DNA of 64,000 nucleotides from an uncultured bacterium. Its GTDB lineage: Bacteria > Patescibacteriota > Minisyncoccia > Phycocordibacterales > UBA9973. A model generated the notes under the pieces. That model worked only from the letters and a program-made list of their open reading frames with translations. It was not told the origin of the DNA and ran no database searches. The stretch is taken from the NCBI GenBank assembly GCA_937903035.1, contig CALCZP010000004.1, positions 181,506 through 245,505 of the forward strand, in the 5' to 3' direction. Positions 1 to 33,862 of the stretch are shown in pieces; the first letter of the stretch is position 1, and the number at the start of each line of letters is the position of its first letter. The translations under genes were made by a program, and so were the position numbers.

Positions 1-750
<750 letters not shown>

Positions 751-4407: not shown

Positions 4408-4908
4408 TTAGATTGCCTTGATTTCAGTAACTTTTCTTGCACCACAATACAATTCATAATTACCAACTGTTTTTACTGAAGCAGTGAAGTATCGAAGTGG
4501 ACGAAGCGTAACTTCTCGCCCATTAAAAGTAATTGTCATTGATGTATCACTGACATTCGTAAAGAGAATACGTGCGCCATGAGCAACTTCGAGTGTTTTT
4601 GGTGTGGGATCACAATTTTTATCAAATGCAATTGATCTTCCTTTATAGTCAATAATAGCCTGCTGATATCCGGGTGTTGCGGCAGAAGGAGCTTGAGGTT
4701 TTACATCTTTCGGACAAGGCTTACCAGTATTGATATCAAATAGATCCCCTGTCTTGCATGACTCAAGTACGACATCAGTAGCAGGTGCCGAAGCTCGATA
4801 CTTGCGCATGTATGATGTGCCGAGTGCAAGTGCTGCAACAATCACGATTGCGATTCCTAATATCCAGAAATTCTTGTACTTTTCGAAATTGTTCTTCAAT
4901 GTATCCAT
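4408..4908 (-). CDS. Hypothetical membrane-anchored, extracytoplasmic protein
   Basis: 166 aa with an N-terminal TM segment (FWILGIAIVIVAALALG), then a soluble domain containing Cys residues. No family recognised. Confidence 0.45.
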   Translation of the reverse strand: MDTLKNNFEKYKNFWILGIAIVIVAALALGTSYMRKYRASAPATDVVLESCKTGDLFDINTGKPCPKDVKPQAPSAATPGYQQAIIDYKGRSIAFDKNCDPTPKTLEVAHGARILFTNVSDTSMTITFNGREVTLRPLRYFTASVKTVGNYELYCGARKVTEIKAI

Positions 4909-4984: not shown

Positions 4985-6283
4985 ATGTCATATAGTTTAA
5001 CCATGTTTCGCACGCGCCAACTCATTCTCCTACTCGGCGACACCTTTGCATTTGTTAGTGCATTTCTCATCATGGCACTTGTTCGCTTTGACGAAGGACT
5101 CCTTACTGAAAATGCACATCTCCAAGCAAAACTCTTTGCAACAGTTTTTGTAGTATGGCTGGTTGTCTTTTTTGTTTTTGATCTCTACACCTACACCCGT
5201 ATCAATCCTACCCCTCGCACCATCGGTCTTATCATTGGTGCCATGATTACTAATATTAGTCTTTCAGTACTGATATTCTATCTATTCCCAACCCAAGGCA
5301 TCACCCCAAAGACTAACCTTGCTATCGTTGCAGTTATTTCCCTCACACTTGTTGTTGTATGGCGTCGAAGCTTCTACCAGCTATTTTCCCAAACATTTAC
5401 TCGACGTATTGGTATCATTGGCGCAAGCGAAAGTGCCCATTCACTCAAAGACCTTATTTCAGACCATCCTCATATCGGCACTATCAGCTTTCACAGTCAG
5501 GAACTTGGTGAACATCAAGGCGCAGATCTCATCATTGCCGAGAACATGTCAGCAGATACCTTTCTTGCGCTTTCACGATCACTTGGTACCGAGCGTATGT
5601 CAGTCATCCAGGCCTACCAGACACTCTTTGGCAAAGTCCCCCTATCACTCATGACCGATGAGCATGCACTATCTATCATTACCAAAGAGCGCTCAGGACT
5701 TTTTATATTCACCCGTATCGTTGAAATACTTGTAGGATTACTTGTACTTATTATCACCTCTCCAGTTCTTCTTATTGCAATTATTGCAAGATTTATTGAA
5801 GATGGACGACCTATCTTTATTAGACAGACACGCGTTGGAAAAGATGGCAACATATTTAAACTCTACAAACTTCGCAGTATGAAAGCTCTCAATACTGATG
5901 GCTCAGCAGAAATTGGTGGTGTGCAATGGGCAGAAAAAAATGATCCTCGTATTACCCCACTCGGCCGTATCCTTCGCAAAACGCATATCGATGAAATCCC
6001 ACAGATGTACAACATCATCCGTGGCGACCTCGCACTCATCGGACCACGCCCTGAGCGTCCAGAAATCGTTGCAGATCTTGAGTCACAGATTCCCTACTAC
6101 TATTTGCGTCATACCGTCCGTCCTGGATTTACCGGCTGGGCACAAATCAAGTTTCGTTATGCGCGTACCGTACTCGACTCACAAGAGAAATTTGAATACG
6201 ACCTGTACTATCTGATGAACAGACACCCAGTCCTTGATGTTGGCATTTTCATCAAGACGATTCAGATTATTTTCACCCATTAA
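4985..6283 (+). CDS. Polyprenyl-phosphate hexose-1-phosphate transferase (bacterial sugar transferase, WbaP/WsaP-like initiating enzyme)
   Basis: 432 aa with N-terminal TM helices. The C-terminal Bac_transf domain reads PVLLIAIIARFIEDGRPIFIRQTRVGKDGNIFKLYKLRSM...DEIPQMYNIIRGDLALIGPRPERPE. Confidence 0.85.
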   Translation: MSYSLTMFRTRQLILLLGDTFAFVSAFLIMALVRFDEGLLTENAHLQAKLFATVFVVWLVVFFVFDLYTYTRINPTPRTIGLIIGAMITNISLSVLIFYLFPTQGITPKTNLAIVAVISLTLVVVWRRSFYQLFSQTFTRRIGIIGASESAHSLKDLISDHPHIGTISFHSQELGEHQGADLIIAENMSADTFLALSRSLGTERMSVIQAYQTLFGKVPLSLMTDEHALSIITKERSGLFIFTRIVEILVGLLVLIITSPVLLIAIIARFIEDGRPIFIRQTRVGKDGNIFKLYKLRSMKALNTDGSAEIGGVQWAEKNDPRITPLGRILRKTHIDEIPQMYNIIRGDLALIGPRPERPEIVADLESQIPYYYLRHTVRPGFTGWAQIKFRYARTVLDSQEKFEYDLYYLMNRHPVLDVGIFIKTIQIIFTH

Positions 6284-6321
6284 ACCCTCGTAAAAATCGT
6301 ATAAAATGCTATTGTAGGAAG

Positions 6322-7146
6322 GTGAAAACACACAGTGTCACTATCCGACCAAAGAAGCTGTTTAGCTTTTCAGATCTCCAAGAAATTTGGGAATATCGAG
6401 AGCTTCTCTATTTCTTTGCATGGCGTGATATCAAGGTCAGATATAAACAAACGGCGATCGGCATCCTGTGGGCTGTCTTTCAACCCTTTGTCACTATGGT
6501 AGTGTTCAGTCTCTTTTTCGGATCACTCCTTCAAGTATCTTCTGATGGCGTTCCCTATCCAATCTTTGTCTATACCGGACTCCTCTTTTGGCAATTCTTT
6601 TCTACTGCACTTTCTGATACGAGTACTGTACTCATCACCAATCAACAAATCATTACCAAGGTATATTTCCCTCGACTTCTCCTTCCTCTTTCTTCAGTAC
6701 TCACAAAAGTGATTGACTTTGGGATTGCCGCAATCATCCTGGTTGGTATGATGCTCTATTATGGATTTACACCTCACCTTATATCACTTGTAGTACTTCC
6801 ACTCCTTTTGGTCATTACTTTTATGGCATCGAGTGGTCTCGGACTTATCCTTGCCGCAATCAATGTAAAGTACCGGGATGTTCGCTATGCATTGCCCTTT
6901 TTTATTCAAATACTGTTGTTTGTAACACCGGTGATATATCCGGCAAGTATTGCCGGCAAGTATTCATGGCTCCTTGCACTTAATCCAATGATGGGGGTTA
7001 TTCAGAGTGCTCGCGCATCGGTACTAGGTACAACCACCCTCAACTGGACACTTATTGGCATATCACTTGTTGCAACTTTTATCCTGCTCTTGCTAGGTAT
7101 CTACATTTTTAAAAAAACCGAGCGATATTTCGCGGATATTATGTAA
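6322..7146 (+). CDS. wzm: ABC-2 type polysaccharide/glycan export permease (Wzm/TagG-like)
   Basis: 274 aa with 6 TM segments. The N-terminal motif EYRELLYFFAWRDIKVRYKQTAIGILWAVFQP is typical of Wzm/KpsM/TagG. It uses a GTG start. Confidence 0.85.
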   Translation: MKTHSVTIRPKKLFSFSDLQEIWEYRELLYFFAWRDIKVRYKQTAIGILWAVFQPFVTMVVFSLFFGSLLQVSSDGVPYPIFVYTGLLFWQFFSTALSDTSTVLITNQQIITKVYFPRLLLPLSSVLTKVIDFGIAAIILVGMMLYYGFTPHLISLVVLPLLLVITFMASSGLGLILAAINVKYRDVRYALPFFIQILLFVTPVIYPASIAGKYSWLLALNPMMGVIQSARASVLGTTTLNWTLIGISLVATFILLLLGIYIFKKTERYFADIM

Positions 7147-7150
7147 TCTT

Positions 7151-8380
7151 ATGACACCTATCATTACTGCAAGCGGCATTGGCAAGAAATATACCTTGAA
7201 TAAGAACCAAGGAAGCTATGTTGCACTTCGTGACGTACTCACCTCTTTTGGAACAAGAGCGGCAGACATATTTCGCCGCACGAAAAAAAGTTCAACCAAA
7301 GAAATCTTTTGGGCGCTCCAAGATGTCGGATTTACTATAAACAAAGGCGAAGTGGTTGGCATCATCGGACGAAACGGTGCAGGCAAGTCAACACTTCTCA
7401 AAATACTTTCACAGATCACCCCACCAACAACCGGCGAGATTATGATTCGTGGACGAGTTGGGAGCCTTCTTGAAGTAGGTACCGGCTTCCATCCTGAACT
7501 CAGCGGACGTGAAAATATTTATCTCAATGGTGCAATCCTCGGTATGAGCCGCAAAGAGATCACTACAAAATTCAATGATATCGTCCAATTCGCAGACGTT
7601 GAAAAATTCCTTGATACACCAGTCAAATACTATTCAAGCGGCATGTACGTCAGACTTGCATTCTCAGTCGCCGCACACATGGAGCCTGATATTCTCATTA
7701 TTGATGAAGTCCTTGCGGTTGGTGATGCTGAATTCCAAAAGAAATGTATTGGTAAAATGGATGAGATTGCAAGAAAGGATGGTCGGACCGTTCTCTTTGT
7801 CAGCCACAATATGGCAGCAATCCAACAACTCTGCAAAAGCGCAATACTCCTAGAACAAGGACAGGTAAAAATGCAGGGACCTGTCAAAGAAGTCATTGAC
7901 GCATATATCGGCCTTGCGGAAAGTAGTGCCTATACAGACATATTATTTGAGCCTGATGCATCAAAAAAAATGGAGATTACCGCAATGAAAGTATCCAAAG
8001 ATGCTAATGAAGCGAGTATTGGCGTGATGAAAGATTTCATTATTGATATCGATATGACCCTTCGAGAAAAAGTAGAGGGTGCATTCATCAGTATTATTTT
8101 CTTTGACCAAGATGGGAGACGATGCGCTGACTTTATGGAAATAGATACTGACGAAAACGCTACCAAAGAACGCCTCGCCGGTGACTATACACTCTCAGTC
8201 ACCATTCCTGGCATTTTCAATGCAGGACTCTATACCGTCATGGTAGTGATCGAAAAAGGACAAGAAACACTCGACAAAAAAGATGGTCTCGTTATTCGTA
8301 TCACCGATACAACAGCGCATCCATACCCTATCCAAGGTAGAGCCCCTTTAATGCCACATGCGACGTGGAACTACCAATGA
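7151..8380 (+). CDS. wzt: ABC transporter ATP-binding protein with C-terminal glycan-binding extension (Wzt/TagH-like)
   Basis: Walker A is GRNGAGKST and the signature region is YSSGMYVRLAFS, as in Wzt/TagH. The nucleotide-binding domain is about 250 aa, followed by a 160-aa beta-rich extension consistent with a Wzt C-terminal carbohydrate-binding module. Confidence 0.85.
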   Translation: MTPIITASGIGKKYTLNKNQGSYVALRDVLTSFGTRAADIFRRTKKSSTKEIFWALQDVGFTINKGEVVGIIGRNGAGKSTLLKILSQITPPTTGEIMIRGRVGSLLEVGTGFHPELSGRENIYLNGAILGMSRKEITTKFNDIVQFADVEKFLDTPVKYYSSGMYVRLAFSVAAHMEPDILIIDEVLAVGDAEFQKKCIGKMDEIARKDGRTVLFVSHNMAAIQQLCKSAILLEQGQVKMQGPVKEVIDAYIGLAESSAYTDILFEPDASKKMEITAMKVSKDANEASIGVMKDFIIDIDMTLREKVEGAFISIIFFDQDGRRCADFMEIDTDENATKERLAGDYTLSVTIPGIFNAGLYTVMVVIEKGQETLDKKDGLVIRITDTTAHPYPIQGRAPLMPHATWNYQ

Positions 8381-11118
8381 ACATTCTCCTTTCGTACAGC
8401 AAAACACACTTTGATCCCAGCAAGCCTGCTGAACTCCATAAGCACTGGAACTCATCGGCAAGCATTCTCGCGCGCACACTCTACCACCTTCTCAAAGAGC
8501 TAGGCTCAGTAACCTATATCGACAAAAGTGAATACAAGGGTATTACCGGTCAGTCATTTGATCTCTTTGTTGGTATTACCGAACATTTTAGTGACATTCT
8601 TGATTCGTGCACCATCAAACAAAGCATTCTCTTTGCAGTAAACATGCACCCATATGAGCGCAATAAGCGTATTAAGTCATTTATGAGTCATGCACATATC
8701 CCACAAACAGCACTCGCTGGATATGAGCTTATCGAAAGCATCAATCCAACAAGTGCGATCAATCGTGCTAACTACATTCTCTGTGTTGGCAATACGGAGA
8801 CATATAACTCGTACATCACCCATGGTGTATCAAAGCAAAAAATCAAAATCATCAACTATGCCGCAGCTGACCTCATAGCACAATCCCCACTTGCGCGAAC
8901 AGCAGCAGCTCACTTTGTTCATGTCGGAAGCGAGATAGGAATACGGAAAGGATTTGATATTGTTGCCCAATTATTCAGCGACCCAAAAGTGGCCACGCAG
9001 GATATTCACCTTGATATCATTGGTACAACCACCTCCCCCTTTTACGAACAAAAACTTGCTGATCTGAAAACACTGCTCGGAGATAAGCTGACGTACCACG
9101 GATGGATTAATTCCAACGATGAACGTTACGCCAATATCATTGCACGAAGTGATTTTCTGGTATATCCCGCACTCGAGGAAGGTCAGGCAGGCTCAGTACT
9201 TGAGTCTCTCACGCTTGGAGTTATACCGATTGTGAGCAAAGCAACGGGTATTGATTTTTCACCACTTGGAACACTTGAAACAAGAATCTCGTCAGAAAAA
9301 AATATGTCAGTCTTGCAACATGCGATTTCATTACCCAAAGATGACATTGAAAAATTGAAACTAAAAACAAAAGAATACTACAACGAGCTCCATACTCCGT
9401 TCAAAGAACAACTCCGTCGCTCACTCAAAGATTCTATCAACAAAGAACTCTACCCGCGCGCAAGCATCGTACTTTCAATCTTTAACAAAGAAAAGACTAT
9501 TGTGTCTCTTCTAGAGCACCTCACCAAATCTTGTACTGCATACGGCAATACCGAAATCCAGATTATTTTTGATGGATGCAAGGATAAGAGCGAACACCTT
9601 GTGCGAGCATTTTTTGCAACCAGACCAGAGCATGATGTCACCTTTCATGTCACTGATAATATTTGGGAAGTAAAAAGTAACAATCTTGGTCTTCGATCAA
9701 GCACTGGTAGGTACGCAATCATTATCCAGGATGACAATTTTATCTACGATGAGAATTTTATTTTTGAAGTCGTTCACTTCTTTGAGAAAAATCCTACGGT
9801 CACAATTATTGGGGGGCTTGCGGGGGTAAACTTCTACCCACGAGGAACGACACTTTCACAGGGCCCAGGGCAACGGACATCAACCGCAGACGAAGCGTAC
9901 TGGCGACAAGATGCGGCAACAGACCCCGCGCTTAAAGAGCAGATTACAGAAGTTGATGCATGCATGCGTGGCCCCCTTTGTTTTCGAAAATCATTCCTTG
10001 AAACATATGGATATCTAGATGAAGTGTATGCCCCCCTTTATAATGATGATATGGATATTTGTTTTCGAGCAAAATCCCAGGGGTACAAAGTCTATACGAT
10101 ACTCCTTGATGTCGAAAACAGAAATGGTACGGTTGCAGGGTATGATGCAAAGAAAGCGGCTTTTTTCCAAAAGATGATCACTCGAAACTCGGATATTTTT
10201 TATCGAAGATGGAAACCGTCAACCACCAAAGACTATCTTCGCATCGTACGAATTCCTATTACAAAAACTTCCCGCAAACACTCTCTACATCCATACCTCT
10301 CTAGTATCAAAAAGCCATTCACAATCACCTCTCTCATTATGAAAAAAATCTACACCATGCTCAAAAAGAATATTACACAAGAAGGAATTGTAGGAGGTAT
10401 ACGCAAGACGTGCAGTGTGGCTATTCGCAAAACTGTCAGATATTGGCAGCATCTCCCCCACTACGTCATGCGTTTTGCGCGATTCGTTTATAGTAGTACT
10501 GAAGATAAAGAATACATCGAGCGAGAAAAACGTGAACGTCCATGGTACCAAATCAACGGTGATGAAACATTGCGAGTTGAGTATGACCTTGATCCTTCAT
10601 CTGTGGTTGTTGATGTGGGTGGATACAAAGGCGATTGGGCAAGTATTATCTCAAACAAATACAATCCAACCATTCATGTGTTTGAACCAGTCAGAGACTT
10701 TGCATTCAATATCAAACGTCGTTTCAAAAACCATGACAAGATCATTGTTCATGAAGCAGGACTTGGAGCAAAAGATGAAACTATTACCATTTATCTCGCT
10801 GAGGGCGGTACCTCTCTCATCAAGGAAGCGGCACAAGAAGTCGATGTCACCATCAAAGATGTCCATGCATTTATGACAGAACTAGGAACTCCTGTTGATC
10901 TGATGAAGATCAACATCGAGGGTGCAGAGTATGACTTGCTCAATCGCCTCATTGATACTGGTGATATCAAGAAGATCAACAACATTCAGGTACAATTTCA
11001 CAACTTTGTCCCCGATGCCAAAAAGCGTATGGAGGAACTTCGCACCAAGCTTTCCAAGACTCACCATGTTACTTATCAATATGAATTCATTTGGGAAAAT
11101 TGGGAGCGCACCATCTAA
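8365..11118 (+). CDS. Three-domain glycosyltransferase/methyltransferase: GT4-like (Glycos_transf_1), GT2, and a C-terminal FkbM-family SAM methyltransferase
   Basis: 917 aa. The N-terminal third has the GT1/4 signature EEGQAGSVLESLTLGVIPIVS. The middle has a GT2 fold (SIVLSIFNKEKTIV...IIIQDDNFI, a DxD). The C-terminus reads VVDVGGYKGDWA...MKINIEGAEYDLL, typical of FkbM methyltransferases. Confidence 0.75.
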   Translation: MELPMNILLSYSKTHFDPSKPAELHKHWNSSASILARTLYHLLKELGSVTYIDKSEYKGITGQSFDLFVGITEHFSDILDSCTIKQSILFAVNMHPYERNKRIKSFMSHAHIPQTALAGYELIESINPTSAINRANYILCVGNTETYNSYITHGVSKQKIKIINYAAADLIAQSPLARTAAAHFVHVGSEIGIRKGFDIVAQLFSDPKVATQDIHLDIIGTTTSPFYEQKLADLKTLLGDKLTYHGWINSNDERYANIIARSDFLVYPALEEGQAGSVLESLTLGVIPIVSKATGIDFSPLGTLETRISSEKNMSVLQHAISLPKDDIEKLKLKTKEYYNELHTPFKEQLRRSLKDSINKELYPRASIVLSIFNKEKTIVSLLEHLTKSCTAYGNTEIQIIFDGCKDKSEHLVRAFFATRPEHDVTFHVTDNIWEVKSNNLGLRSSTGRYAIIIQDDNFIYDENFIFEVVHFFEKNPTVTIIGGLAGVNFYPRGTTLSQGPGQRTSTADEAYWRQDAATDPALKEQITEVDACMRGPLCFRKSFLETYGYLDEVYAPLYNDDMDICFRAKSQGYKVYTILLDVENRNGTVAGYDAKKAAFFQKMITRNSDIFYRRWKPSTTKDYLRIVRIPITKTSRKHSLHPYLSSIKKPFTITSLIMKKIYTMLKKNITQEGIVGGIRKTCSVAIRKTVRYWQHLPHYVMRFARFVYSSTEDKEYIEREKRERPWYQINGDETLRVEYDLDPSSVVVDVGGYKGDWASIISNKYNPTIHVFEPVRDFAFNIKRRFKNHDKIIVHEAGLGAKDETITIYLAEGGTSLIKEAAQEVDVTIKDVHAFMTELGTPVDLMKINIEGAEYDLLNRLIDTGDIKKINNIQVQFHNFVPDAKKRMEELRTKLSKTHHVTYQYEFIWENWERTI

Positions 11119-11123
11119 TACTA

Positions 11124-11980
11124 TGAGACCCTCAATTGATGTCATTATCCCGCTCTATAACGGCGCAGCATTTATTGCTACAGCGATTGAGTCAGTTATT
11201 GCGCAAACCTACTCACCTACTCATATCATTATTATTAACGATGGATCGACCGATAAAGGACCCGAAATTGCAACTTCATACCAGACAAAGACATCAATCC
11301 CTCTTGTCATTATCAATCAGGAAAACAAAGGTCTCAGCGCCGCGCGCAATACAGGTATCAATACAGCAACCAGTGAGTACATCGCTTTTCTTGATGCAGA
11401 TGATGTATGGATCCCAGAGAAGCTTCAAAAACAAATAGGAGTATTCAATAAAAGCGATATCTCAAACCTCGGACTCGTGTATTGCTTGTATAACATTATC
11501 AATGCACAAGGACAGATTGACCCGCACGGCTTTGTCGTCCCACTCGACACATCAATCCGAGGTGCAGTGTTTAGCAAACTCCTCAAGGGCAACAAAATCC
11601 TCTCAAGTGGTAGTGGCGTATTGATTAAACGAACCGTATTTGAAACAGTCGGACAATTCAATGAAACACTTCGTTTTGGTGAAGACTGGGACATGTGGCT
11701 CCGTATCGCAGAACAATACGGAGTCGACTATAGCGATACAGTACTCGTTCATATCAGAAGGCACGGACAAAACATGACCACATCAAAGAAACGAGTGTTT
11801 CAGGGCGAGATTGCGTTTTATCGTGTATGGCTCCGTTATATGATCAACCACAACCGACGAGTACCGTTGAGATGGAAGCTGAAAATCATCTACAAAATAC
11901 TCACACTGTTTCCTCCTGTATCACTTATCAAACAGGCATTACCAGTGCTTTTTGTACCACGCAATACCTTTGGTAAGTAG
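11124..11980 (+). CDS. Family 2 glycosyltransferase
   Basis: Start trimmed to the ATG at 11124 (MRPSIDVIIPLYNGAAFIATAIESV...IINDGSTDKG...AFLDADDVW). GT2 fold with a DxD motif. Confidence 0.85.
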
Positions 11981-12784
11981 GAGTCGGAGTGGTGTACGCA
12001 ATACAAACCCATACATAAAGATACGAGCGTACGATCTCATAACTGCAGACCAGTATCCTGGGTATTGTGCTTTATATTTTTTAATAAGAGGAATGTTTTG
12101 AGAGAACTGAAGCTTTTTATTCCTTCCACTCAAGCTCCCGGCACGAAGAGTAAAATGAACAGAATATATCGAAAGATTTGCAAGCTCACCTACCATTCCA
12201 AGCTTGAGCCACAGATCGTAGTCCTCTATATGAAGCGAAGCCGGATCTTCATCATATCCTCCGACAGAGAGTACTGCATCTTTTCGAAAGACAACACTCG
12301 AATGAACAAAGCAATTCTTGCCAAGGAGCACTGATCGTATATGTGCATCTGTCTGAGGAACCAAATACCGAAACAACTCTTTTCCTACCTCATCAATCAT
12401 CACCACACCCGTGCCAACAAGAACAGTGTTTGGATGAAGTACCATATATGACACTTGTTTGGCGAGCTTCTCTGTATCAATCCATCGATCATCATCGTCG
12501 ATCCGGGCAATGAGATCACCCTGCGCAATACGAAGTCCTTTGTTCAACGTCTTTTGAATACCAAGATTTTTCTCGTTTTCAATAAAGTGGATTTTTGCAT
12601 CATGTTTCATAATTTCTGCCACGATCTCCTTAGTAGTGTCAGATGATCCATCACTGATAATGATCAATTCCCAGTTGTGGTACGTTTGCACCTGGACGCT
12701 TTCAATTGCACCTTTGATAAATGCAGCACCATTCCACGTAGGGAGAATAATAGAAACAAGCGGTGTACTCATATACGTATCCAT
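11939..12784 (-). CDS. Family 2 glycosyltransferase
   Basis: VSIILPTWNGAAFIKGAIESVQVQTYHNWELIIISDGSSD...RIDDDDRW. GT2 fold with a DxD motif. It overlaps the convergent GT2 gene by about 40 bp at the 3' ends. Confidence 0.85.
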   Translation of the reverse strand: MDTYMSTPLVSIILPTWNGAAFIKGAIESVQVQTYHNWELIIISDGSSDTTKEIVAEIMKHDAKIHFIENEKNLGIQKTLNKGLRIAQGDLIARIDDDDRWIDTEKLAKQVSYMVLHPNTVLVGTGVVMIDEVGKELFRYLVPQTDAHIRSVLLGKNCFVHSSVVFRKDAVLSVGGYDEDPASLHIEDYDLWLKLGMVGELANLSIYSVHFTLRAGSLSGRNKKLQFSQNIPLIKKYKAQYPGYWSAVMRSYARIFMYGFVLRTPLRLLLTKGIAWYKKHW

Positions 12785-13644
12785 TCTGGTGGAATAAGAC
12801 CACTCGTATCAATCGATGTATCGTTAAACCATTTTTGTGGTGCGACGACTATCTTATTAGTTGCTGTACCGAGCCATGCCGCCCACCATGAAAACGTACT
12901 GTTTGGAATAATAAAGTGCGTGCATGATTGCATCAGCGCAAAGTGCCCACTCTCGCGCTCACCTCGATAGATATCATCAACAAACGTTGCAGGGTGAAGA
13001 AATGCCAAGTTATTCTTGCACCACTCTATATCATCAGAAAACACATAGATATGATCAATAGTCGTCTTTGCTTCAAGAACATCAAGCGCCTGGTAGTAGT
13101 AGTCCTTGAACACGACTTCGTGATGGGTATTCCCGACATAATCCCCTCGTCTAACATGAAGACATACTGATGAATGATGCGACTGTACTTCTGTTTTAAC
13201 ACGCTGTATATGTGCCTGCAGTGGTTGTTGCAGGGTCAAGTCTTTTCGTATAGTGTCCGCAATAGACTCAAAGTATTTGTAGCTCTGCCAATAACCATCC
13301 AGATAGGTATCAGAACCGAGCGTAAGTATATCGGGATTGAAAGCGAATCCCTTTTCTTTTCCCCCAAACAGCATTCGTCGCAATTTGTTTAGATACAGCC
13401 CAAACTTACCCGATCCCCATGAGCGATACTTCCACCCTAGTTTAGATTGTGGAACTATTTCAGCAGCTATATTAAACAGATCGAGATCATACTCGCGAAA
13501 CGTAAATCCTTTGCGAGGAGTTCGATCAAGCAGATCATGTGTATCAAGTCCGAGTGTTGTATTATTTTTAACAGCAAGAGCGCGTCCAGCCGCATACTGA
13601 AACATCTGGTTACCCATTCCCCCTGAAAGTCGTGTGATGATCAT
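12769..13644 (-). CDS. Alpha-1,2-fucosyltransferase (GT11 family)
   Basis: Start at the internal ATG (MIITRLSGGMGNQMFQYAAGRALA). The GG(L/M)GNQMFQYA motif is diagnostic of GT11 FutC/WbgL-type enzymes. Confidence 0.8.
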   Translation of the reverse strand: MIITRLSGGMGNQMFQYAAGRALAVKNNTTLGLDTHDLLDRTPRKGFTFREYDLDLFNIAAEIVPQSKLGWKYRSWGSGKFGLYLNKLRRMLFGGKEKGFAFNPDILTLGSDTYLDGYWQSYKYFESIADTIRKDLTLQQPLQAHIQRVKTEVQSHHSSVCLHVRRGDYVGNTHHEVVFKDYYYQALDVLEAKTTIDHIYVFSDDIEWCKNNLAFLHPATFVDDIYRGERESGHFALMQSCTHFIIPNSTFSWWAAWLGTATNKIVVAPQKWFNDTSIDTSGLIPPEWIRI

Positions 13645-13645
13645 A

Positions 13646-15640
13646 TTATTTTTGGGACGTCCATCGTTCTTGCATCGCCAGAACATATGCACGATCTCGC
13701 GGAGACGCAGTTTGCATTATTTTTTCAGTGGTTCGATACCCTGGCTGATATTGTGGAGCAAGTGCAATACCAGCCCTGAGATACTGCCATGCATGACGAT
13801 AATCCTTTTCAAACAGATATGTCTGCGCGATATCGAAATATAGATTTGCATTCCTACTGTTTATCAAGCGTGCATCCTGAAGTCGTCCACGAGCATCCGC
13901 AAGCACTAGAGGATCTGGATTCCCTGCAAGTACGACACTGAGTGTCTTGAGTTGACCACTCACCCACCGAGCTCGAAATGTGTCTACATCAGTTGCAATA
14001 TCTTCATCAAGATTAGCAATAAGATTATTAACAATAATCAAGTGAGATTTTTTTTGATCATCATTCATTACTCCTAGCTTGCTTCGTATACTATCAAAAA
14101 CTTTTCCTGCAAAAAGAGCTGAGTCACTTGCGTATCCAAGAGATGAAATATGCTGAGGGTTTTTTTGATTAGATAGAATCAACATATCTCTTTTGGAGTA
14201 TTTATTCCATGCAACTGATTCTTGCCATGGCTGTACAAATGCAATCACCACAAAAATCAAACCTGCAAGAATTCCGCTAAAAGAAAGTATCTTATCTGGG
14301 AATGGGAATACTAAAGAATACTTATGAGAAACTATTCTCTGATACATACCGATAGTAGCGCCGACAATAACAAAAAAAATTAACAGTGTTCCAGGACTTT
14401 CAAATATAAAAAGATTTTGAATCACATATCCCACAAATGCACCAAGCATGGCAATAGCAACTATTCTATGTTCACGATCTCTTGTTGAAACTTGGTAGAG
14501 ATAAACAATTACCATACCAAGAAGACTTATATAAGCGAGCAGGCCTACAATACCCCCATTTACCAAATATTCCCAAAACATATTATGAGGATGATCAGTC
14601 CAAGGTTCATATGCATTAGTAGTTGAGAAAAATACTGGATCAAAATGTTTTTGGAAAACGTATGAATAATTATTAGCTCCCCATCCAAGGAAAGGTTTTT
14701 CAAGATACCCCTCTCTTGCTATATCCCAAAATATAAAACGGTTGGTATTTTTTTCTTGTACGTACGCCTGATGCAGTCGAGTGTTCGGATCAAAAAACTG
14801 CTTTCCGATCAGTAATCCGATTATGCCACCTACGAACAGTAATCCCATACCTCCATATTGCAACTTTTTTTTCTTTGCCGTGACTAAAAAAAATACACAC
14901 ATAGTACTCACTGCTGTCACCAGCCCCAAAAATGCTCCATCAGCAGATCCAGCGACGAGACTCGGATTTTGCATAATATCTTTAAATCCAATACTTCCAT
15001 TCAAAAGATCGTTGTTAAAAAAAATAGGTGAAAAAACAATCGGTACCACCCCGAGAGTAGTCAACACTTTATACATACTATCCTTTGATGAAAGGATAAG
15101 ATACAGACCAAAACAAACATGTACTAATAAATATGCCCCCACATATGAAGTGTTCCCAAATGTTGATCCACCATTTGAACTAATAAACATACTGTTTAGA
15201 TAAGTTCCACTAGCAACTACAATACTCGTGCAAAAAGATACAAGAATCATGCCACGCAAAAATGACACATCTTCTCTAATACAACGAGCGATAGCAAGCG
15301 CAACTATTGTAAGTGCAATGATAAGGTTGACTCCCACACCATCAACAAGACTTCCAAAAAACGAAAGTTTAGGGTCAAATCCGGCAAATGCACTCAATAC
15401 AAGTGTTACGAGATACACCAAAAGCATCAAATGAAGTGCTGTGACTTGTACTGTCTTTCGACTATTTACATACCGGTCATAGAACAACAGCATCCCGATC
15501 AGTAATCCTACCCCTGTAGAAATTAATGCTTTTGGTGTTGTATAAGGAAAAAAATGGCTGCTTCCTACATATAAAGGAACAATAACGAGCATACCGTATA
15601 TCATCCATTTTACAGTAAGCAGTGGCCAAGTAATTTTCAT
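13646..15640 (-). CDS. O-antigen ligase/polymerase family membrane protein (Wzy_C domain; WaaL/WsaB/PglL-like) with a C-terminal soluble TPR-like tail
   Basis: About 10-12 TM helices. The conserved loop reads WTDHPHNMFWEYLVNGGIVGLLAY. The C-terminal roughly 190 aa is soluble. The ORF-track start at 15667 is TTG, so I chose the ATG at 15640. Confidence 0.65.
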   Translation of the reverse strand: MKITWPLLTVKWMIYGMLVIVPLYVGSSHFFPYTTPKALISTGVGLLIGMLLFYDRYVNSRKTVQVTALHLMLLVYLVTLVLSAFAGFDPKLSFFGSLVDGVGVNLIIALTIVALAIARCIREDVSFLRGMILVSFCTSIVVASGTYLNSMFISSNGGSTFGNTSYVGAYLLVHVCFGLYLILSSKDSMYKVLTTLGVVPIVFSPIFFNNDLLNGSIGFKDIMQNPSLVAGSADGAFLGLVTAVSTMCVFFLVTAKKKKLQYGGMGLLFVGGIIGLLIGKQFFDPNTRLHQAYVQEKNTNRFIFWDIAREGYLEKPFLGWGANNYSYVFQKHFDPVFFSTTNAYEPWTDHPHNMFWEYLVNGGIVGLLAYISLLGMVIVYLYQVSTRDREHRIVAIAMLGAFVGYVIQNLFIFESPGTLLIFFVIVGATIGMYQRIVSHKYSLVFPFPDKILSFSGILAGLIFVVIAFVQPWQESVAWNKYSKRDMLILSNQKNPQHISSLGYASDSALFAGKVFDSIRSKLGVMNDDQKKSHLIIVNNLIANLDEDIATDVDTFRARWVSGQLKTLSVVLAGNPDPLVLADARGRLQDARLINSRNANLYFDIAQTYLFEKDYRHAWQYLRAGIALAPQYQPGYRTTEKIMQTASPRDRAYVLAMQERWTSQK

Positions 15641-15670
15641 GAGGCAATTGTAGCAAATACTACCCAAAAC

Positions 15671-15696
15671 AAAAAACCGCCCGAAGGCGGTTTTTT
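15671..15696. terminator. Strong bidirectional intrinsic terminator after the surface-protein gene
   Basis: AAAAAACCGCCCGAAGGCGGTTTTTT, a perfect stem with A6/T6 flanks. Confidence 0.7.
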
Positions 15697-15720
15697 GCGT
15701 ACGTATCTAAGTCAGGAGTA

Positions 15721-17613
15721 TTAGTCGAGCTTAGCGTCAGCTGTTTCGTAGTTCTGCGCCGGAGCGAGAGTGTATGAAGCAGGAGTACCTGACTGGTCAG
15801 TGTCATAACGAACTGCACCGAGTTGTACACGGTAGAATCCAGCAGTAGCTGAACCCTTTGTGAGTTCGAGAGTAACATTGAAGGTCTTAGTTTCACCATC
15901 AGCAACCTTGTAGTAGCCACCAACAGTGTCAGCACTTGAAGTAAGTGATGAAGCTGAAGCAGTTACAGAAGTATCGGTAGCACCAGCACTGGTTTCTACA
16001 GAGTAGATGAGACCAGCTGTTGAACCAGATGAAGCTACAGTCTTAGGAATGTAGTAGTCATTACCGAATGCAGTTACTTTGTAAGAAACTGTGTAAGTCT
16101 GCTTACTGAAGGTACCAGAAGTGTTTGAAGTTGCAGAAACACTTGAAGTGAATCCTGAAACCATAACGCCCTCTGAGTAGAATGTCTGAGTTTCACCAGT
16201 TACAGAACCAGTGAGATCACCAACAGAAAGGTTGTCACCATTCTCATCCTCAAAGCCAACAGCATTGCGCTCGTTTGAGCCAAATGTTACTGAAGCTGAG
16301 TCACCTTCGGTGAAGTTAACACCGTCGATTTCTTTGATCTTTGCTACAACCTTGAATGTTTCAACGTCGCCTTCACTGATAGTGAAGTCATCATCGAAGT
16401 CGAAGGTTACAGTACCAGAAGTACTTGAAGGAGCATCCTGACTGTCAATCTCTTCTGAGCCGTTCATAAGAGCGAGCTCATCAAAGATCTGAGTACCGTT
16501 AGCACCAGTAGTGTTTACCTGAACTGGGAGAGAATCAAAAGTAATATCTGATCCTTCTGCCTTGATCTTGAACTCAAGCATAGTAATACCTGAAGTTGCA
16601 CTAGTGTCAGATACTTCTACGTTCTGAGCTTCTGGGTTGTTTGAACCTTCAGTTACCTTAACCTTAACATCACCTGATGCTGAAAGGTCAGTGAAAGTGA
16701 AGTCTTCATCTGGAGCAGAAGTATCAGTCAATACAGCACCACCAGCGTCAGTGAAGCGGATTGTTGAAACTTCAACGTTCCAAGTAGCAGTAAGGTCAGT
16801 ACTATCGATGTTATCAATAGCATCAACTGCAACGTAAAGGTTTGCCTTTTCGTCAGCCTTGATTACAGCACCAGAGAGAGAAACACTCTTTGAGTAGACA
16901 TCTCCATCCTTGTTGAAATCATCAACACTTACTGAACCAACTTTCTTTGAACCGAGCCATACTGACACAGTGTCAACGTAACGGTTCAAGCGAGCTGAAG
17001 AAGAGTTGTTAGCAGTGTTTTCAAATGAAAGCTTCACGTTAGTGAGTGCTACATCTGAACCATTGTCAGCCTCAACCTTTGCACCGAGAACGATGTGGGT
17101 AGAGTCACCTTCTTTAACTTCACTGTCGCCTACACCATTTGAGGTAGAAGTAACAGTAATGTCACCTGCACCACCGGTAAGAGGGCCACTAGTTGAACCA
17201 CCAGAACAAAGAGCACCAGTAGTTGAACTGTACATAGCACCAGCTACGCAGCCAGCAGGAAGATTAGATCCACCTGTTGAACCAGAAGCCTGAAGTGCTA
17301 CAGCCTTAGCAGCTGACATTGGTCCGAAGACGCCGTCAGCAGTGAGACCGTTAGCAACCTGGAAGCGCATAACCGCTGCCTTTGTTGCAGAACCAAATGT
17401 TGATGTTTCCATTCCTGGAGCACCTGCACCTGATGTTGATACCTGAGTACCAGGCCACATGTTAAGGAACTTTTGGAGATCCATAACAGCAGCACCTTTA
17501 GAACCATATTTGAGAGTCGTTGACCAAGTGTAAGTTGCTGCACTTGCAGTTGATGCAAGAGTAACTACACCGAGAACCAACGCTGCTACAAAAAATTTAA
17601 ATTTTGAAGTCAT
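15721..17613 (-). CDS. Secreted surface protein: signal peptide, peptidoglycan-binding (PG_binding_1-like) domain, long Ser/Thr/Gly-rich beta-rich region; putative S-layer/cell-wall glycoprotein
   Basis: 630 aa. MTSKFKFFVAALVLGVVTLASTASA is a signal peptide. GSKGAAVMDLQKFLN...ATKAAVMRFQVANGLTADGVFGPMSAAKA matches the PG-binding repeat. The rest is S/T/G/V-rich. The gene is isolated by strong terminators and has a long upstream untranslated region. Confidence 0.65.
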   Translation of the reverse strand: MTSKFKFFVAALVLGVVTLASTASAATYTWSTTLKYGSKGAAVMDLQKFLNMWPGTQVSTSGAGAPGMETSTFGSATKAAVMRFQVANGLTADGVFGPMSAAKAVALQASGSTGGSNLPAGCVAGAMYSSTTGALCSGGSTSGPLTGGAGDITVTSTSNGVGDSEVKEGDSTHIVLGAKVEADNGSDVALTNVKLSFENTANNSSSARLNRYVDTVSVWLGSKKVGSVSVDDFNKDGDVYSKSVSLSGAVIKADEKANLYVAVDAIDNIDSTDLTATWNVEVSTIRFTDAGGAVLTDTSAPDEDFTFTDLSASGDVKVKVTEGSNNPEAQNVEVSDTSATSGITMLEFKIKAEGSDITFDSLPVQVNTTGANGTQIFDELALMNGSEEIDSQDAPSSTSGTVTFDFDDDFTISEGDVETFKVVAKIKEIDGVNFTEGDSASVTFGSNERNAVGFEDENGDNLSVGDLTGSVTGETQTFYSEGVMVSGFTSSVSATSNTSGTFSKQTYTVSYKVTAFGNDYYIPKTVASSGSTAGLIYSVETSAGATDTSVTASASSLTSSADTVGGYYKVADGETKTFNVTLELTKGSATAGFYRVQLGAVRYDTDQSGTPASYTLAPAQNYETADAKLD

Positions 17614-18152
17614 AATTGTTTATCGTTATTAATCGCACATACATTACATAATTGTAATTTTCAGTTCGACAAAACTGAGGCATGGCGTTGTCAGATACAT
17701 ATGAGATCTTTGTCATCTTATATATACCGACGAGTTCGCAGATGGCGTACGGTAACGAGCCGTACTGTATCTGCCGTGTCGACAGGGCCGATATCGTGTC
17801 TTCCGCCCGCTGCCGTTTGACCGGAGCGAGGCAGAACACAAATATTTTGGACGACCGCCGAAAATGAATAATCGTTATTGTGAACAATTTCGATATGCTA
17901 TTTTCAACGATCAATCCGTGCGTGGTTTACTTACATTACTGCAAGACATTTCACTCTTTCGAATGAAGTGCCCACTATTTGTCTTCTGGCTCCGCAACCA
18001 GTCTTGCGACAGATGGCGGACAGAAAGACAGTGATAATACTACCATACTAGCCCTTGTAGAGCTAGTGTTTGTGGTATCAAAACCATCAGACTTCAGAGA
18101 ACAAAAGAAGTGGTAAACCACCTAGTACTGAGACGCGTGTAGCGCACAAATC

Positions 18153-18764
18153 TTACATAGACATATAGACACTCCAACGTTTTGATCCTCGTTTGGTCAT
18201 CTTGCCCTCAGAGACAAGTGCACCGAGTTCGCGCTGTATTGTCTTCTCGGACAGCTCTGGAAAGATCGCAGCAATGTCCTTGATACCAGCACTCTTTCGG
18301 TCATTAATGAAGGACAAAATTGCTTGCTTACGATCAGTCTTTATTTCATTTGTTTTAGATATTTTTTTATCGGACAAACTGTTCTGAAGTGATGCGACCG
18401 ATGTACTAAAGGACGAGATTTTTTTAGCTGTACTATCGGACATTGTTGGGGTGGTTGCTGATACCGCAAATAGTGATCTGACGTCACTCTGACCATCGAG
18501 TACTGAAGTGACGAAATGTCTGACTTCGAGCAAAATGATGGACGCATTTTTCTCTGATACTAGACCTGCCATAACTGCCCCTCCAAGCAACATATCAACT
18601 CGATCACGAACGTGTGGGATTGCAGCAGCATCACTTCGGACAAGCGCGAGTGCCTCGGTTCTGATGGCGACCTTGAGTGGATCAGTATCAGACAAATGCC
18701 CGGTAACTAAATACAAGGCAGCTACAATTTTTTGTCCTTTTGTTTTGTCTATTAGATTTTCCAT
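18153..18764 (-). CDS. Hypothetical protein with a C-terminal winged helix-turn-helix (DeoR/MarR-like) domain
   Basis: 203 aa. The C-terminus reads KQAILSFINDRKSAGIKDIAAIFPELSEKTIQRELGALVSEGKMTKRGSKRWSVY. Confidence 0.45.
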   Translation of the reverse strand: MENLIDKTKGQKIVAALYLVTGHLSDTDPLKVAIRTEALALVRSDAAAIPHVRDRVDMLLGGAVMAGLVSEKNASIILLEVRHFVTSVLDGQSDVRSLFAVSATTPTMSDSTAKKISSFSTSVASLQNSLSDKKISKTNEIKTDRKQAILSFINDRKSAGIKDIAAIFPELSEKTIQRELGALVSEGKMTKRGSKRWSVYMSM

Positions 18765-31969: not shown

Positions 31970-33862
31970 CTATGGTAGCACACGCTCGCCCCCTGGGGTA
32001 TAGACGGGATCGCTATCAAGTCTTGTTGTGAGTGGAGGTCGAGTCGTGGTAAGTGGCGCATTTGCAGCAGTATCAGTGGCAGTGACCATCGTCTCCCCGA
32101 GAAGCATAATGTCACTATCAATAGATGCCCGTGTCGGTCGAGCTTTGACCTGGAACGAAACAGTCTTCTTTTGGAGTGCTGAACCGTTTGCCTTTGGTAA
32201 TGTCCCAATATTCCAAGTCACAACTTTGCTCTCAGTGTTGTATGTAATCAACTCAGACTGCGGTACGACAACACCTGACCAGATAACTCCATTTGGAAGT
32301 GCTGCCGTTGCTTGAACATTGGTAAGTGCGTTCTCAGAAGGTCGGACAGTCCAGGTCAATGTATAGGTTGTTTCAATATCAGCCTTTGGTGGATATGGAC
32401 CAGTATTTTTAATAGGACCAATTGAGTACAGTGACTGGGCGGCAAACTGCAACGTCGAAGCAAATCGAACGGTCTTTTGGTCGATCATATCGATTGTTTG
32501 TTGGAAATAATCACGATCAGGAAATACGCCTGACACTGATAGTGAGAAAACCATATCAGGAGCACCTGGTCGAACTTGCTTGGTTGGGAATGTAAACATC
32601 AAATCTCCTTCCTGCCCTGGAGCAATAACAGTAAGTGCATTGTCAGACTCTGGTGTCCAAGTAATGGTGTGATCAAGGGCATTGTAGTAGCCATTGTCGA
32701 CCTTAAGCGCATTTACATCGATACCCTCTCCACCAAGCAAAAGCGTAAAGAGTGGCTTCACGACCGAAAGTGGTGAGTTGTTTTTCCAATGAATAGTACC
32801 CGTTACGGTAGCACCTGTTGAAATAGGAACAACATCATTTTTATCTCCATTAATCGCAATCTCTGCACTGATAAATGGCTGAGCGAGTATTATTGGATGA
32901 AGTACTGAGTTAAAGGTAACTGCAAGTCGCCGATCCGTAGCACTCTCGGGTGTTCCCGTATAAATACGAAACGACTTTTCATCATTTTCTTCACCCATGA
33001 GACGTCCTTGGATTTTAATGATGCGCTCAGTTCCTTTTTCGAGATCACCCAGTGACCACACGTTGTTACCAGATACCGGAGCTGGGTCTGCAGACTTAAA
33101 GACAAATCCGTTTGGATATTCAACACGAGTGATTACATCATTGAGTGCCTTGTCACCAGTGAAGTTGTTGCGAATAGTAAGTGTGAAAGGCTGACTCGAA
33201 ACAATAGCTGAGGGACCATCCGCAGTAAGTGTCACCGGAGATGAACTAATGATAACTGCAAAGTCTTGTTCACGCTGAAATGTTGAGCTTGAACCTGCAA
33301 GCTGATAACTAACACGCGCTTTAATACTCCTACTAAGGCCCTGCTCACCATACAGCACAACAGTAACTTCTTCACTTTTTGTTTTACCAGATCCGATCGT
33401 TCCAAGCTGTTTTTCGATATGCATCACATCGCTACCACTCTGATCAGTGGCACCTCTTGGGTAGTCAATTGATAGGATTGTATTGGTGAGGTCAACGGCA
33501 TTCTTGTTAGTAATCTCAATCTGTATAGGAAGCTCCTCTCCCCCACCTACGAATGAATTGCCGAGGATCTTTACTTCAACATTCTTGCTCGAAAGCGTAA
33601 TCGAGCCATGGTAAATAGAGTACAGAGCAATGCCAAGTCCAATGATGAAAAAGATGAATGAAAAAATGAAAAAACGTTTGTATCCAGCAGAGAGTTTTGG
33701 GTGACGAGCACGCTCATGTGGCACCTCAGCTTCACCCCATGTTGAGGAAATATTTTGCTTAATCGGCCGCAAGATACCAAACTTCCGCTTGGGAATGTTT
33801 TCGGGGTCGCGCGCATAGAGGCGCTGCTGCAAGTCACCAATATGATCTATTTCATCAGCCAT
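31970..33862 (-). CDS. Hypothetical membrane-anchored protein with a large extracytoplasmic beta-rich domain
   Basis: 630 aa. The N-terminus is cytoplasmic, followed by one TM (FFIFSFIFFIIGLGIALYSIY) and a large extracellular region. No family recognised. Confidence 0.45.
   Translation of the reverse strand: MADEIDHIGDLQQRLYARDPENIPKRKFGILRPIKQNISSTWGEAEVPHERARHPKLSAGYKRFFIFSFIFFIIGLGIALYSIYHGSITLSSKNVEVKILGNSFVGGGEELPIQIEITNKNAVDLTNTILSIDYPRGATDQSGSDVMHIEKQLGTIGSGKTKSEEVTVVLYGEQGLSRSIKARVSYQLAGSSSTFQREQDFAVIISSSPVTLTADGPSAIVSSQPFTLTIRNNFTGDKALNDVITRVEYPNGFVFKSADPAPVSGNNVWSLGDLEKGTERIIKIQGRLMGEENDEKSFRIYTGTPESATDRRLAVTFNSVLHPIILAQPFISAEIAINGDKNDVVPISTGATVTGTIHWKNNSPLSVVKPLFTLLLGGEGIDVNALKVDNGYYNALDHTITWTPESDNALTVIAPGQEGDLMFTFPTKQVRPGAPDMVFSLSVSGVFPDRDYFQQTIDMIDQKTVRFASTLQFAAQSLYSIGPIKNTGPYPPKADIETTYTLTWTVRPSENALTNVQATAALPNGVIWSGVVVPQSELITYNTESKVVTWNIGTLPKANGSALQKKTVSFQVKARPTRASIDSDIMLLGETMVTATDTAANAPLTTTRPPLTTRLDSDPVYTPGGERVLP

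Follow-up and report, generated by a model that had tools for sequence, protein, structure and literature searches.

A candidate ABC-transporter-dependent O-glycosylation island beside a peptidoglycan-binding surface protein in a Patescibacteria genome

The Patescibacteria, or candidate phyla radiation (CPR), are mostly uncultured, ultra-small epibionts whose surface decides host attachment and phage infection. In a 64-kb stretch of DNA from an uncultured bacterium (64,000 nucleotides of contig CALCZP010000004.1; hereafter the window), the host of which is a member of the Patescibacteria, and within them probably of the Paceibacteria, nine open reading frames at positions 4985-17613 encode a glycan assembly and export machinery, a ligase-like membrane protein and a secreted peptidoglycan-binding protein that we call SurfPG. 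This locus raises the question of which molecule receives the glycan. An earlier reading of the same DNA (the original prediction) had proposed a system for the O-glycosylation of a surface protein. Here, we propose that the locus is an ABC-transporter-dependent surface-glycan island which would O-glycosylate SurfPG en bloc with a methyl-capped, fucose-containing polymer, and we assign this reading a probability of roughly 0.5.

Genes of the island and the proposed pathway

Domains were called by profile searches with Pfam and NCBIfam at curated cut-offs. The nine genes are as follows.

4985-6283, plus strand: PGT, a large WbaP/WsaP-type polyprenyl-phosphate glycosyl-1-phosphate transferase, the initiating enzyme (Bac_transf 191 bits)
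6322-7146, plus strand: Wzm, ABC-2 permease of the glycan exporter (ABC2_membrane 60 bits; galactan Wzm/RfbD model, E 2e-23)
7151-8380, plus strand: Wzt, ATPase with a C-terminal carbohydrate-binding domain (ABC_tran 80 bits; Wzt_C 18.6 bits, cut-off 30.4)
8365-11118, plus strand: three-domain enzyme, GT4 + GT2 + FkbM methyltransferase, 917 aa (Glycos_transf_1 at residues 191-296, Glycos_transf_2 at 367-500, Methyltransf_21 at 750-900)
11123-11980, plus strand: GT2a, glycosyltransferase (Glycos_transf_2 119 bits; start codon checked, 4 nt past the preceding stop)
11939-12784, minus strand: GT2b, glycosyltransferase, last gene of the minus-strand operon (Glycos_transf_2 108 bits)
12769-13644, minus strand: GT11, alpha-1,2-fucosyltransferase-family enzyme (Glyco_transf_11 119 bits; HVRRGDY motif)
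13646-15640, minus strand: WaaL-fold ligase (Wzy_C 49.6 bits, cut-off 31.7), proposed O-oligosaccharyltransferase
15721-17613, minus strand: SurfPG, secreted peptidoglycan-binding surface protein (PG_binding_1 37.5 bits)

The Pfam results show that each domain named in the original prediction is present at the position proposed for it. PGT matched the NCBIfam model TIGR03025 (273 bits) and also the WbaP and WcaJ models, all below the equivalog cut-offs, so that its placement in the EPS/WbaP/WcaJ grouping holds at the level of the group only. The wzm and wzt genes lie 4 nt apart and have Wzt/TagH-type relatives in NCBIfam and PDB. The C-terminal extension that had been ascribed to Wzt was supported in part: the Wzt_C profile stayed below its cut-off, while residues 50-372 align with residues 32-355 of the 404-aa full-length Wzt of Aquifex aeolicus (8dku/7k2t; E 7e-67). 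Since this alignment runs through the carbohydrate-binding domain of the A. aeolicus protein, the extension is a homologue of that domain. In the 917-aa enzyme, the gene of which starts within the end of wzt, all three domains scored above their Pfam cut-offs; the FkbM domain reached 45.7 bits with Methyltransf_21 (cut-off 22.7) and 59.9 bits with TIGR01444 (cut-off 37.7). We propose that this enzyme is a candidate chain polymerase and also the chain terminator, with a putative capping activity in its FkbM domain.

The genes of the island form two convergent, packed units, with PGT, Wzm, Wzt, the GT4/GT2/FkbM enzyme and GT2a on the plus strand, and the ligase, GT11 and GT2b on the minus strand. 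The ATG of GT11 lies 1 nt past the ligase stop codon, and the GT11 and GT2b genes then overlap. Where the two units meet, GT2a and GT2b share 42 nt at their 3′-ends (11939-11980), and a terminator between the two operons is absent. The G+C content is 38% across the ligase gene compared to about 45% for the window. As judged by Pfam, neither a Wzx flippase (Polysacc_synt/MurJ-type) nor a separate Wzy polymerase is found among the nine open reading frames.

The pathway proposed here is modelled on those of Escherichia coli O9a and the Geobacillus S-layer glycosylation (slg) cluster (PMC2943079). PGT would prime polyprenyl phosphate with hexose-1-phosphate at the inner membrane face, the two GT2 enzymes and the GT11 fucosyltransferase would make an adaptor or branches, with GDP-fucose supplied from elsewhere in the genome, and the GT4-GT2 part of the 917-aa enzyme would elongate the repeat polymer. 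The FkbM domain may then O-methylate the non-reducing end, and the capped chain would be bound by the carbohydrate-binding domain of Wzt and exported by Wzm/Wzt. Outside the cell, the WaaL-fold ligase would move the chain en bloc off the lipid carrier by means of a conserved Arg/His loop, while its external TPR domain may hold or present the acceptor, presumably Ser/Thr (or Tyr) residues of SurfPG and possibly of other secreted proteins, e.g. pilins.

The ligase, SurfPG and the acceptor of the glycan

The AlphaFold model of the ligase, which was built with 19 sequences (pLDDT 85, pTM 0.86), has a polytopic, WaaL-like fold, and WaaL was the closest fold found by structural comparison. Both parts of the protein described in the original prediction, a WaaL/Wzy_C-family membrane domain and a soluble TPR-like tail, were thus recovered, the tail by profile as well as by model: residues 503-662 form a series of helical repeats, and their matches are TPR proteins, among them the TPR domain of O-GlcNAc transferase. 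About 13 transmembrane (TM) helices were counted by hydropathy and the positive-inside rule, with the N-terminus inside and an 84-residue external loop past TM9, as in WaaL. The ligase has an extra last (13th) TM helix, and therefore its TPR tail lies outside the cell. R300 and H351, both in the large external loop with a spacing of 51 residues, are invariant in 19 ligase sequences down to 18% identity. Metagenomes commonly encode this architecture at full length (1,825 representatives at 50% identity, E<=1e-30). By analogy with characterized enzymes of this family, we propose that the ligase may transfer a lipid-linked glycan to Ser/Thr.

SurfPG (630 aa) has a signal peptide, a three-helix PG_binding_1 domain, a low-confidence linker with a disulfide-type loop, and three Ig-like beta-sandwich domains (AF2 model, pLDDT 87). 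Foldseek matched this model to Ig-like surface adhesins (PrgB, antigen I/II and MSCRAMMs), and the Geobacillus S-layer protein SbsB appeared at rank 14. The original prediction had called the protein highly Ser/Thr-rich; the Ser and Thr content is indeed 24.9%, but it is a matter of composition, even along the chain and with no mucin-like tract. The protein has 12.1% Asp and Glu compared to 5.9% Lys and Arg, and two Cys. This composition fits a surface-layer or adhesin protein and is proof of neither. The SurfPG family comprises at least 292 proteins of 600-700 aa, and its named homologues are mainly from Pacebacteria, Nomurabacteria and Paceibacterota metagenome-assembled genomes (MAGs), with one labelled Dojkabacteria. 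In three Paceibacteria, the genes of unknown function with the highest expression include some for peptidoglycan-binding-domain proteins that are reported to be similar in predicted structure (PMC10936435), their homology to SurfPG being unconfirmed. The highly expressed peptidoglycan-binding protein of Ca. Yanofskyibacterium (692 aa, with a signal peptide; PMC10936435) was set aside as a counterpart, as its gene neighbours differ and its homology to SurfPG is unconfirmed.

The neighbourhood of SurfPG is conserved. Among loci selected by the ligase, 23 had sufficient flanking sequence, and about 19 of these, with ligase identities as low as 25%, show RecA, FtsK, h203 (a conserved hypothetical protein), SurfPG and ligase in this order. 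Since that sample is biased to the ligase, an independent sample was drawn by means of a 26-nt element in the SurfPG leader, which gave 115 metagenome contigs. SurfPG lies 3′ of the element in 88/88 informative contigs, and the 33 contigs that reach at least 1.5 kb past SurfPG were informative for the ligase. In these, the ligase is immediately next to SurfPG in 20 loci, 0.8-1.6 kb away in 4 and missing in 9. The expected co-occurrence of the cluster with the surface protein was therefore seen in both samples, with the ligase 3′ of SurfPG in 24/33 independent loci. In the remaining 9 loci, which have no adjoining island, the next genes past SurfPG encode giant secreted proteins, or else h166 and rplJ come straight after it (an empty site). 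We read the ligase as part of a variable island between SurfPG and h166/rplJ; wherever the island exists, the ligase is its edge gene nearest SurfPG, on the same strand. Two further features delimit these genes in the window.

4408-4908, minus strand: h166, a small membrane-anchored protein with a 15-residue Cys loop (CKTGDLFDINTGKPC), the conserved distal island border
15666-15696, minus strand: intrinsic terminator between the SurfPG and ligase genes (AAAAAACCGCC-TTCG-GGCGGTTTTTTGTTTT; dG -23.5, z -3.4)

No Pfam match was obtained for h166. Its homologues lie beyond the PGT gene in three related loci (L005, L008 and L022), and in one other (L143) directly past the SurfPG gene, which is the empty-site arrangement.

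The content of the island varies between relatives. Wzm/Wzt is the exporter in 7 loci and in the window, and Wzx in 9; the two were never found together, and the orthologous ligase is kept throughout, which shows that the ligase is independent of the export route. GT11 is frequent in related islands, and genes for GDP-sugars occur in some. In 14 related loci (L017, L026-L029, L032, L036-L038 and others), two tandem Wzy_C/TPR paralogues are found 3′ of the SurfPG gene; these could serve two acceptor or glycan specificities, or could be a ligase and a polymerase.

The ligase-profile genome matches are Patescibacteria MAGs in 26/26 cases (with the labels Paceibacteria, Nomurabacteria, Parcubacteria, Minisyncoccia or Saccharibacteria), and one ligase homologue carries the NCBI label Patescibacteria MAG. 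These results agree with the CPR-like lineage that had been considered for the host. The original prediction had also preferred protein glycosylation to lipopolysaccharide (LPS) O-antigen synthesis; genes for lipid A, Kdo, heptosyltransferases or the LPS core are absent from the 64-kb window and from every related flank.

The surface-protein gene had been placed directly downstream of the glycan genes, in one continuous unit with them. Neither part of that description held: on the minus strand SurfPG is transcriptionally upstream of the ligase, and the intrinsic terminator splits the two genes. An equivalent hairpin with a T-run is found 3′ of the SurfPG orthologue in 21/21 related loci. Since the terminator separates the genes in the window and in all of these relatives, SurfPG and the ligase are separate transcription units, and an obligate operon of the two is ruled out. 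The terminator in the window is strong and looks bidirectional.

A Cys-bounded loop of 15 residues, C-x4-G-[FY]-S-x-T-T-G-x2-C, is present in SurfPG at residues 122-136 (window 16236-16250) and occurs in 0-2 copies per orthologue. A variant of it is carried by the unrelated, membrane-anchored h166 at the opposite edge of the island.

Several results weigh against SurfPG as the recipient of the glycan and against the proposed chemistry. Nine of the 33 independent relatives keep SurfPG without an adjoining island. The RecA and FtsK flanks are as syntenic as the ligase, as is h203, so adjacency alone is weak evidence and may reflect a conserved backbone with a hotspot for variable genes. The separate transcription of SurfPG and the ligase is a further weakening point. 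In the ligase, no conserved Arg is found at the position expected for the third catalytic Arg (R215 of the E. coli set R215, R288 and H338), Pfam gave no PglL_A or Wzy_C_2 match at E<=0.01, and no NCBIfam model matched. Genes for GDP-fucose synthesis were sought within the 64-kb window and not found. The Cys loop was considered as a glycosylation sequon and rejected: it is present in 8/10 loci that lack the ligase and absent from about half of the loci that have one, some SurfPG orthologues have no Cys at all, and the h166 variant has no Ser/Thr.

Many of the same results would be expected if the acceptor were a lipid. The ligase would then put the polymer on a membrane glycolipid, giving a lipoglycan or a lipoteichoic-acid-like product, and SurfPG would be a mere neighbour on a conserved backbone. 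The WaaL-like enzyme TacL of Streptococcus pneumoniae attaches a polymer to a membrane glycolipid in this way. The fold of our ligase is nearest to WaaL, itself a lipid-acceptor ligase, and the absent PglL_A motif, the separate transcription, the 9/33 loci with SurfPG and no adjoining island and the equally conserved housekeeping synteny all agree with a glycolipid. To our knowledge, however, neither WaaL nor TacL has an external TPR domain. This protein-binding module is found in the S-layer transferase WsfB (PMC2943079). In addition, the ligase always occupies the SurfPG-proximal edge of the island, on the same strand. We consider a glycolipid acceptor unlikely, and SurfPG the likely recipient.

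Doubtful to a greater degree is a polymer linked to peptidoglycan as a wall polysaccharide, or left as a loose capsule, with the Wzy_C/TPR protein acting as a wall ligase or an export scaffold. The ABC route with a Wzt binding domain does resemble the export of teichoic acids and rhamnan, and TagH/TarH are the next best relatives of Wzt. Neither the window cluster nor the Pfam-annotated related loci and their flanks showed a LytR_cpsA_psr (LCP) domain, and therefore another enzyme would be needed for attachment to the wall. However, we know of no Wzy_C-family enzyme that ligates to peptidoglycan, and the Arg/His loop that is conserved here is typical of the transfer of undecaprenyl-pyrophosphate-linked glycans to a hydroxyl acceptor.

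A role for the Wzy_C protein as a repeat-unit polymerase of the Wzy type is very improbable: Pfam Wzy_C spans polymerases and ligases alike, and the Wzx-type islands with one Wzy_C gene show no other recognised polymerase, but the orthologue is kept with either exporter, including Wzm/Wzt in the window and 7 other islands, a route in which a Wzy polymerase has no role, and the 14 loci with two paralogues allow for one polymerase and one ligase where both are needed.

Leader RNA, other features of the window and wider significance

The gap of about 540 nt on the 5′ side of SurfPG is conserved in DNA sequence even where the proteins of two loci are only 30-40% identical. It contains a leader, and the h203 gene lies upstream of it.

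17614-18050 (gap to 18152), minus strand: conserved non-coding SurfPG leader, with a P1/P2 domain at 17850-17915 and the 26-nt near-palindrome at 17768-17793
18153-18764, minus strand: h203, conserved hypothetical protein 5′ of the leader, candidate regulator (weak C-terminal HTH_DeoR, E 0.002, below the cut-off)

The 26-nt near-palindrome, TATCGGCCYTGTCGACAMGGCAGATA, is the element by which the independent sample was drawn. It is nearly invariant and has 115 exact metagenome matches; each locus has a single copy, in every case on the coding strand and 131-430 nt before the SurfPG ATG. A dif site is an unlikely identity for it, as the palindrome is complete at its centre and GC skew runs monotonically over the whole window. 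In the P1/P2 domain, a hairpin is enclosed by the pairing of GAUCAUUGAAAA with UUUUCnnUGGUC. In the alignment of this domain, 88.8% of cells were paired compared to 34-51% in slid controls, and double-sided changes were found in 59 cells compared to 18.6 ± 3.8 in shuffles, with 0/500 shuffles reaching 59. The window copy folds with z -5.2. A search of Rfam gave no match for the leader at E<=1. The leader may function as a new cis-regulatory RNA, or else as an operator of the neighbouring h203 protein.

The h203 gene is present in nearly all related loci. As a regulator, h203 was not upheld, since its HTH match is sub-threshold and a PDB relative was not found.

In more distant relatives (L018, L019, L024, L034, L039 and about 80 other loci), hairpins with UGAUAGAG as their loop, 1-7 per leader, lie within 450 nt of the 26-nt element. 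In 1.31 Mb, 256 of the 346 occurrences of UGAUAGAG fall in leaders, and a stem of at least 5 bp was found at 62.5% compared to 15.6% in controls. This hairpin array looks like a set of candidate sites for an RNA-binding protein. No such hairpins are found in the leader of the window.

Past the block, the flank encodes FtsK, a small Glucodextran_B-like protein, RecA, EF-P, SSB, S6 and tRNA synthetases. This sequence is also carried by a 405-kb ENA metagenome contig (ERZ650244 NODE_1). Other features were noted elsewhere in the window.

1-749, minus strand: 5′ part of a 23S rRNA gene
31970-33862, minus strand: putative surface protein, 630 aa, with DUF11
35449-38823, minus strand: isoleucyl-tRNA synthetase-like protein, 1,124 aa, with a His_Phos_1 histidine-phosphatase domain inserted at residues 500-674
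56737-58518, minus strand: putative surface protein, 593 aa, with faint Kelch matches
58560-63911, minus strand: putative surface protein, 1,783 aa, with a Peptidase_S74 (endosialidase chaperone) domain

Since the 23S rRNA gene occurs with no 16S rRNA gene in the 64 kb, the rRNA genes appear to be unlinked; no tRNA gene was found in the window either.

On a wider scale, we tentatively suggest that throughout the Paceibacteria the Wzy_C/TPR enzyme may be a dedicated O-oligosaccharyltransferase that coats a conserved, highly expressed SurfPG with strain-variable glycans. The hypervariable island, with Wzm/Wzt or Wzx, differing sugars and sometimes complete absence, would then correspond, in CPR, to an O-antigen locus and would determine the specificity of host attachment and of phages, while expression of the acceptor would be under an undescribed structured leader RNA. 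This proposal is possible, and we do not hold it as the expected outcome. A full-text search of the literature found no report of protein glycosylation or of WaaL-type ligases in Patescibacteria, and the system would be a familiar kind of surface glycosylation in a lineage with no described example. The locus gives a testable pair, a conserved wall-bound SurfPG and a TPR-bearing ligase, and the variable glycan island is a possible strain marker. If these ligases are indeed protein transferases that accept long polymers, they could be useful for glyco-engineering.

Comparison with known systems

The closest likeness in gene content is to the slg cluster of Geobacillus stearothermophilus NRS 2004/3a (WsaP, Wzm/Wzt, WsaE, WsaB and WsaA, with SgsE as the target), as the original prediction had noted. 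Both systems have initiation by a WbaP-type PGT, export of an O-methyl-capped chain by Wzm/Wzt (with a binding domain in the Wzt described here, where the capping is putative), a single polypeptide with two glycosyltransferase domains and a methyltransferase (WsaE; PMC2943079), and a Wzy_C transferase with an associated TPR, which in our ligase is fused to the enzyme. The S-layer genes sgsE and sgtA, which lie beside slg clusters, are monocistronic (PMC2943079), and SurfPG is like them in being a target-candidate gene that adjoins the cluster and is transcribed alone. The two systems differ in that the methyltransferase is C-terminal and of the FkbM type here and N-terminal in WsaE, and in that GT4 and GT2 domains and a GT11 fucosyltransferase are found here in place of the rhamnose chemistry of slg, with no rml genes. 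The candidate target is a PG_binding_1/Ig-domain protein rather than an SLH-type S-layer protein, and the convergent gene arrangement and the CPR lineage are also unlike slg.

The O-oligosaccharyltransferase WsfB, which acts on the S-layer of the monoderm Paenibacillus alvei, shares with our ligase a Wzy_C domain followed by a C-terminal TPR (PMC2943079), a likeness of architecture. WsfB glycosylates tyrosine and is encoded far from the gene of its target on the chromosome, whereas the gene of the candidate target SurfPG lies beside that of the ligase.

The enzymes PglL, PilO, TfpO and PglS of Neisseria, Pseudomonas and Acinetobacter also share the Wzy_C domain. PglL-type enzymes take glycans whatever the export route. 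Their targets are pilins or periplasmic proteins of diderms and their glycans are usually short, and the PglL_A motif was undetected in our ligase. In PglL, R298 and H349 are 51 residues apart, the same spacing as R300 and H351 of the ligase, and pglL genes adjoin their targets in 21/31 cases (PMC3643930).

WaaL of Cupriavidus metallidurans (7tpg/7tpj) is 12-14% identical to the ligase, which has one more TM helix and, outside the cell, a TPR domain of 195 residues. The acceptor of WaaL is lipid A-core, and none is expected in the lineage of the window. The export side of the locus resembles that of E. coli O9a/O8 and of A. aeolicus WzmWzt, with which it shares the C-terminal carbohydrate-binding domain of Wzt and a methyltransferase in the polymerising machinery. 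In E. coli O9a/O8, the terminator is a WbdD-type kinase/methyltransferase, whereas the proposed terminator here is an FkbM domain fused to glycosyltransferases. Initiation in the O9a/O8-type systems is by WecA, and in the island described here a PGT takes this place.

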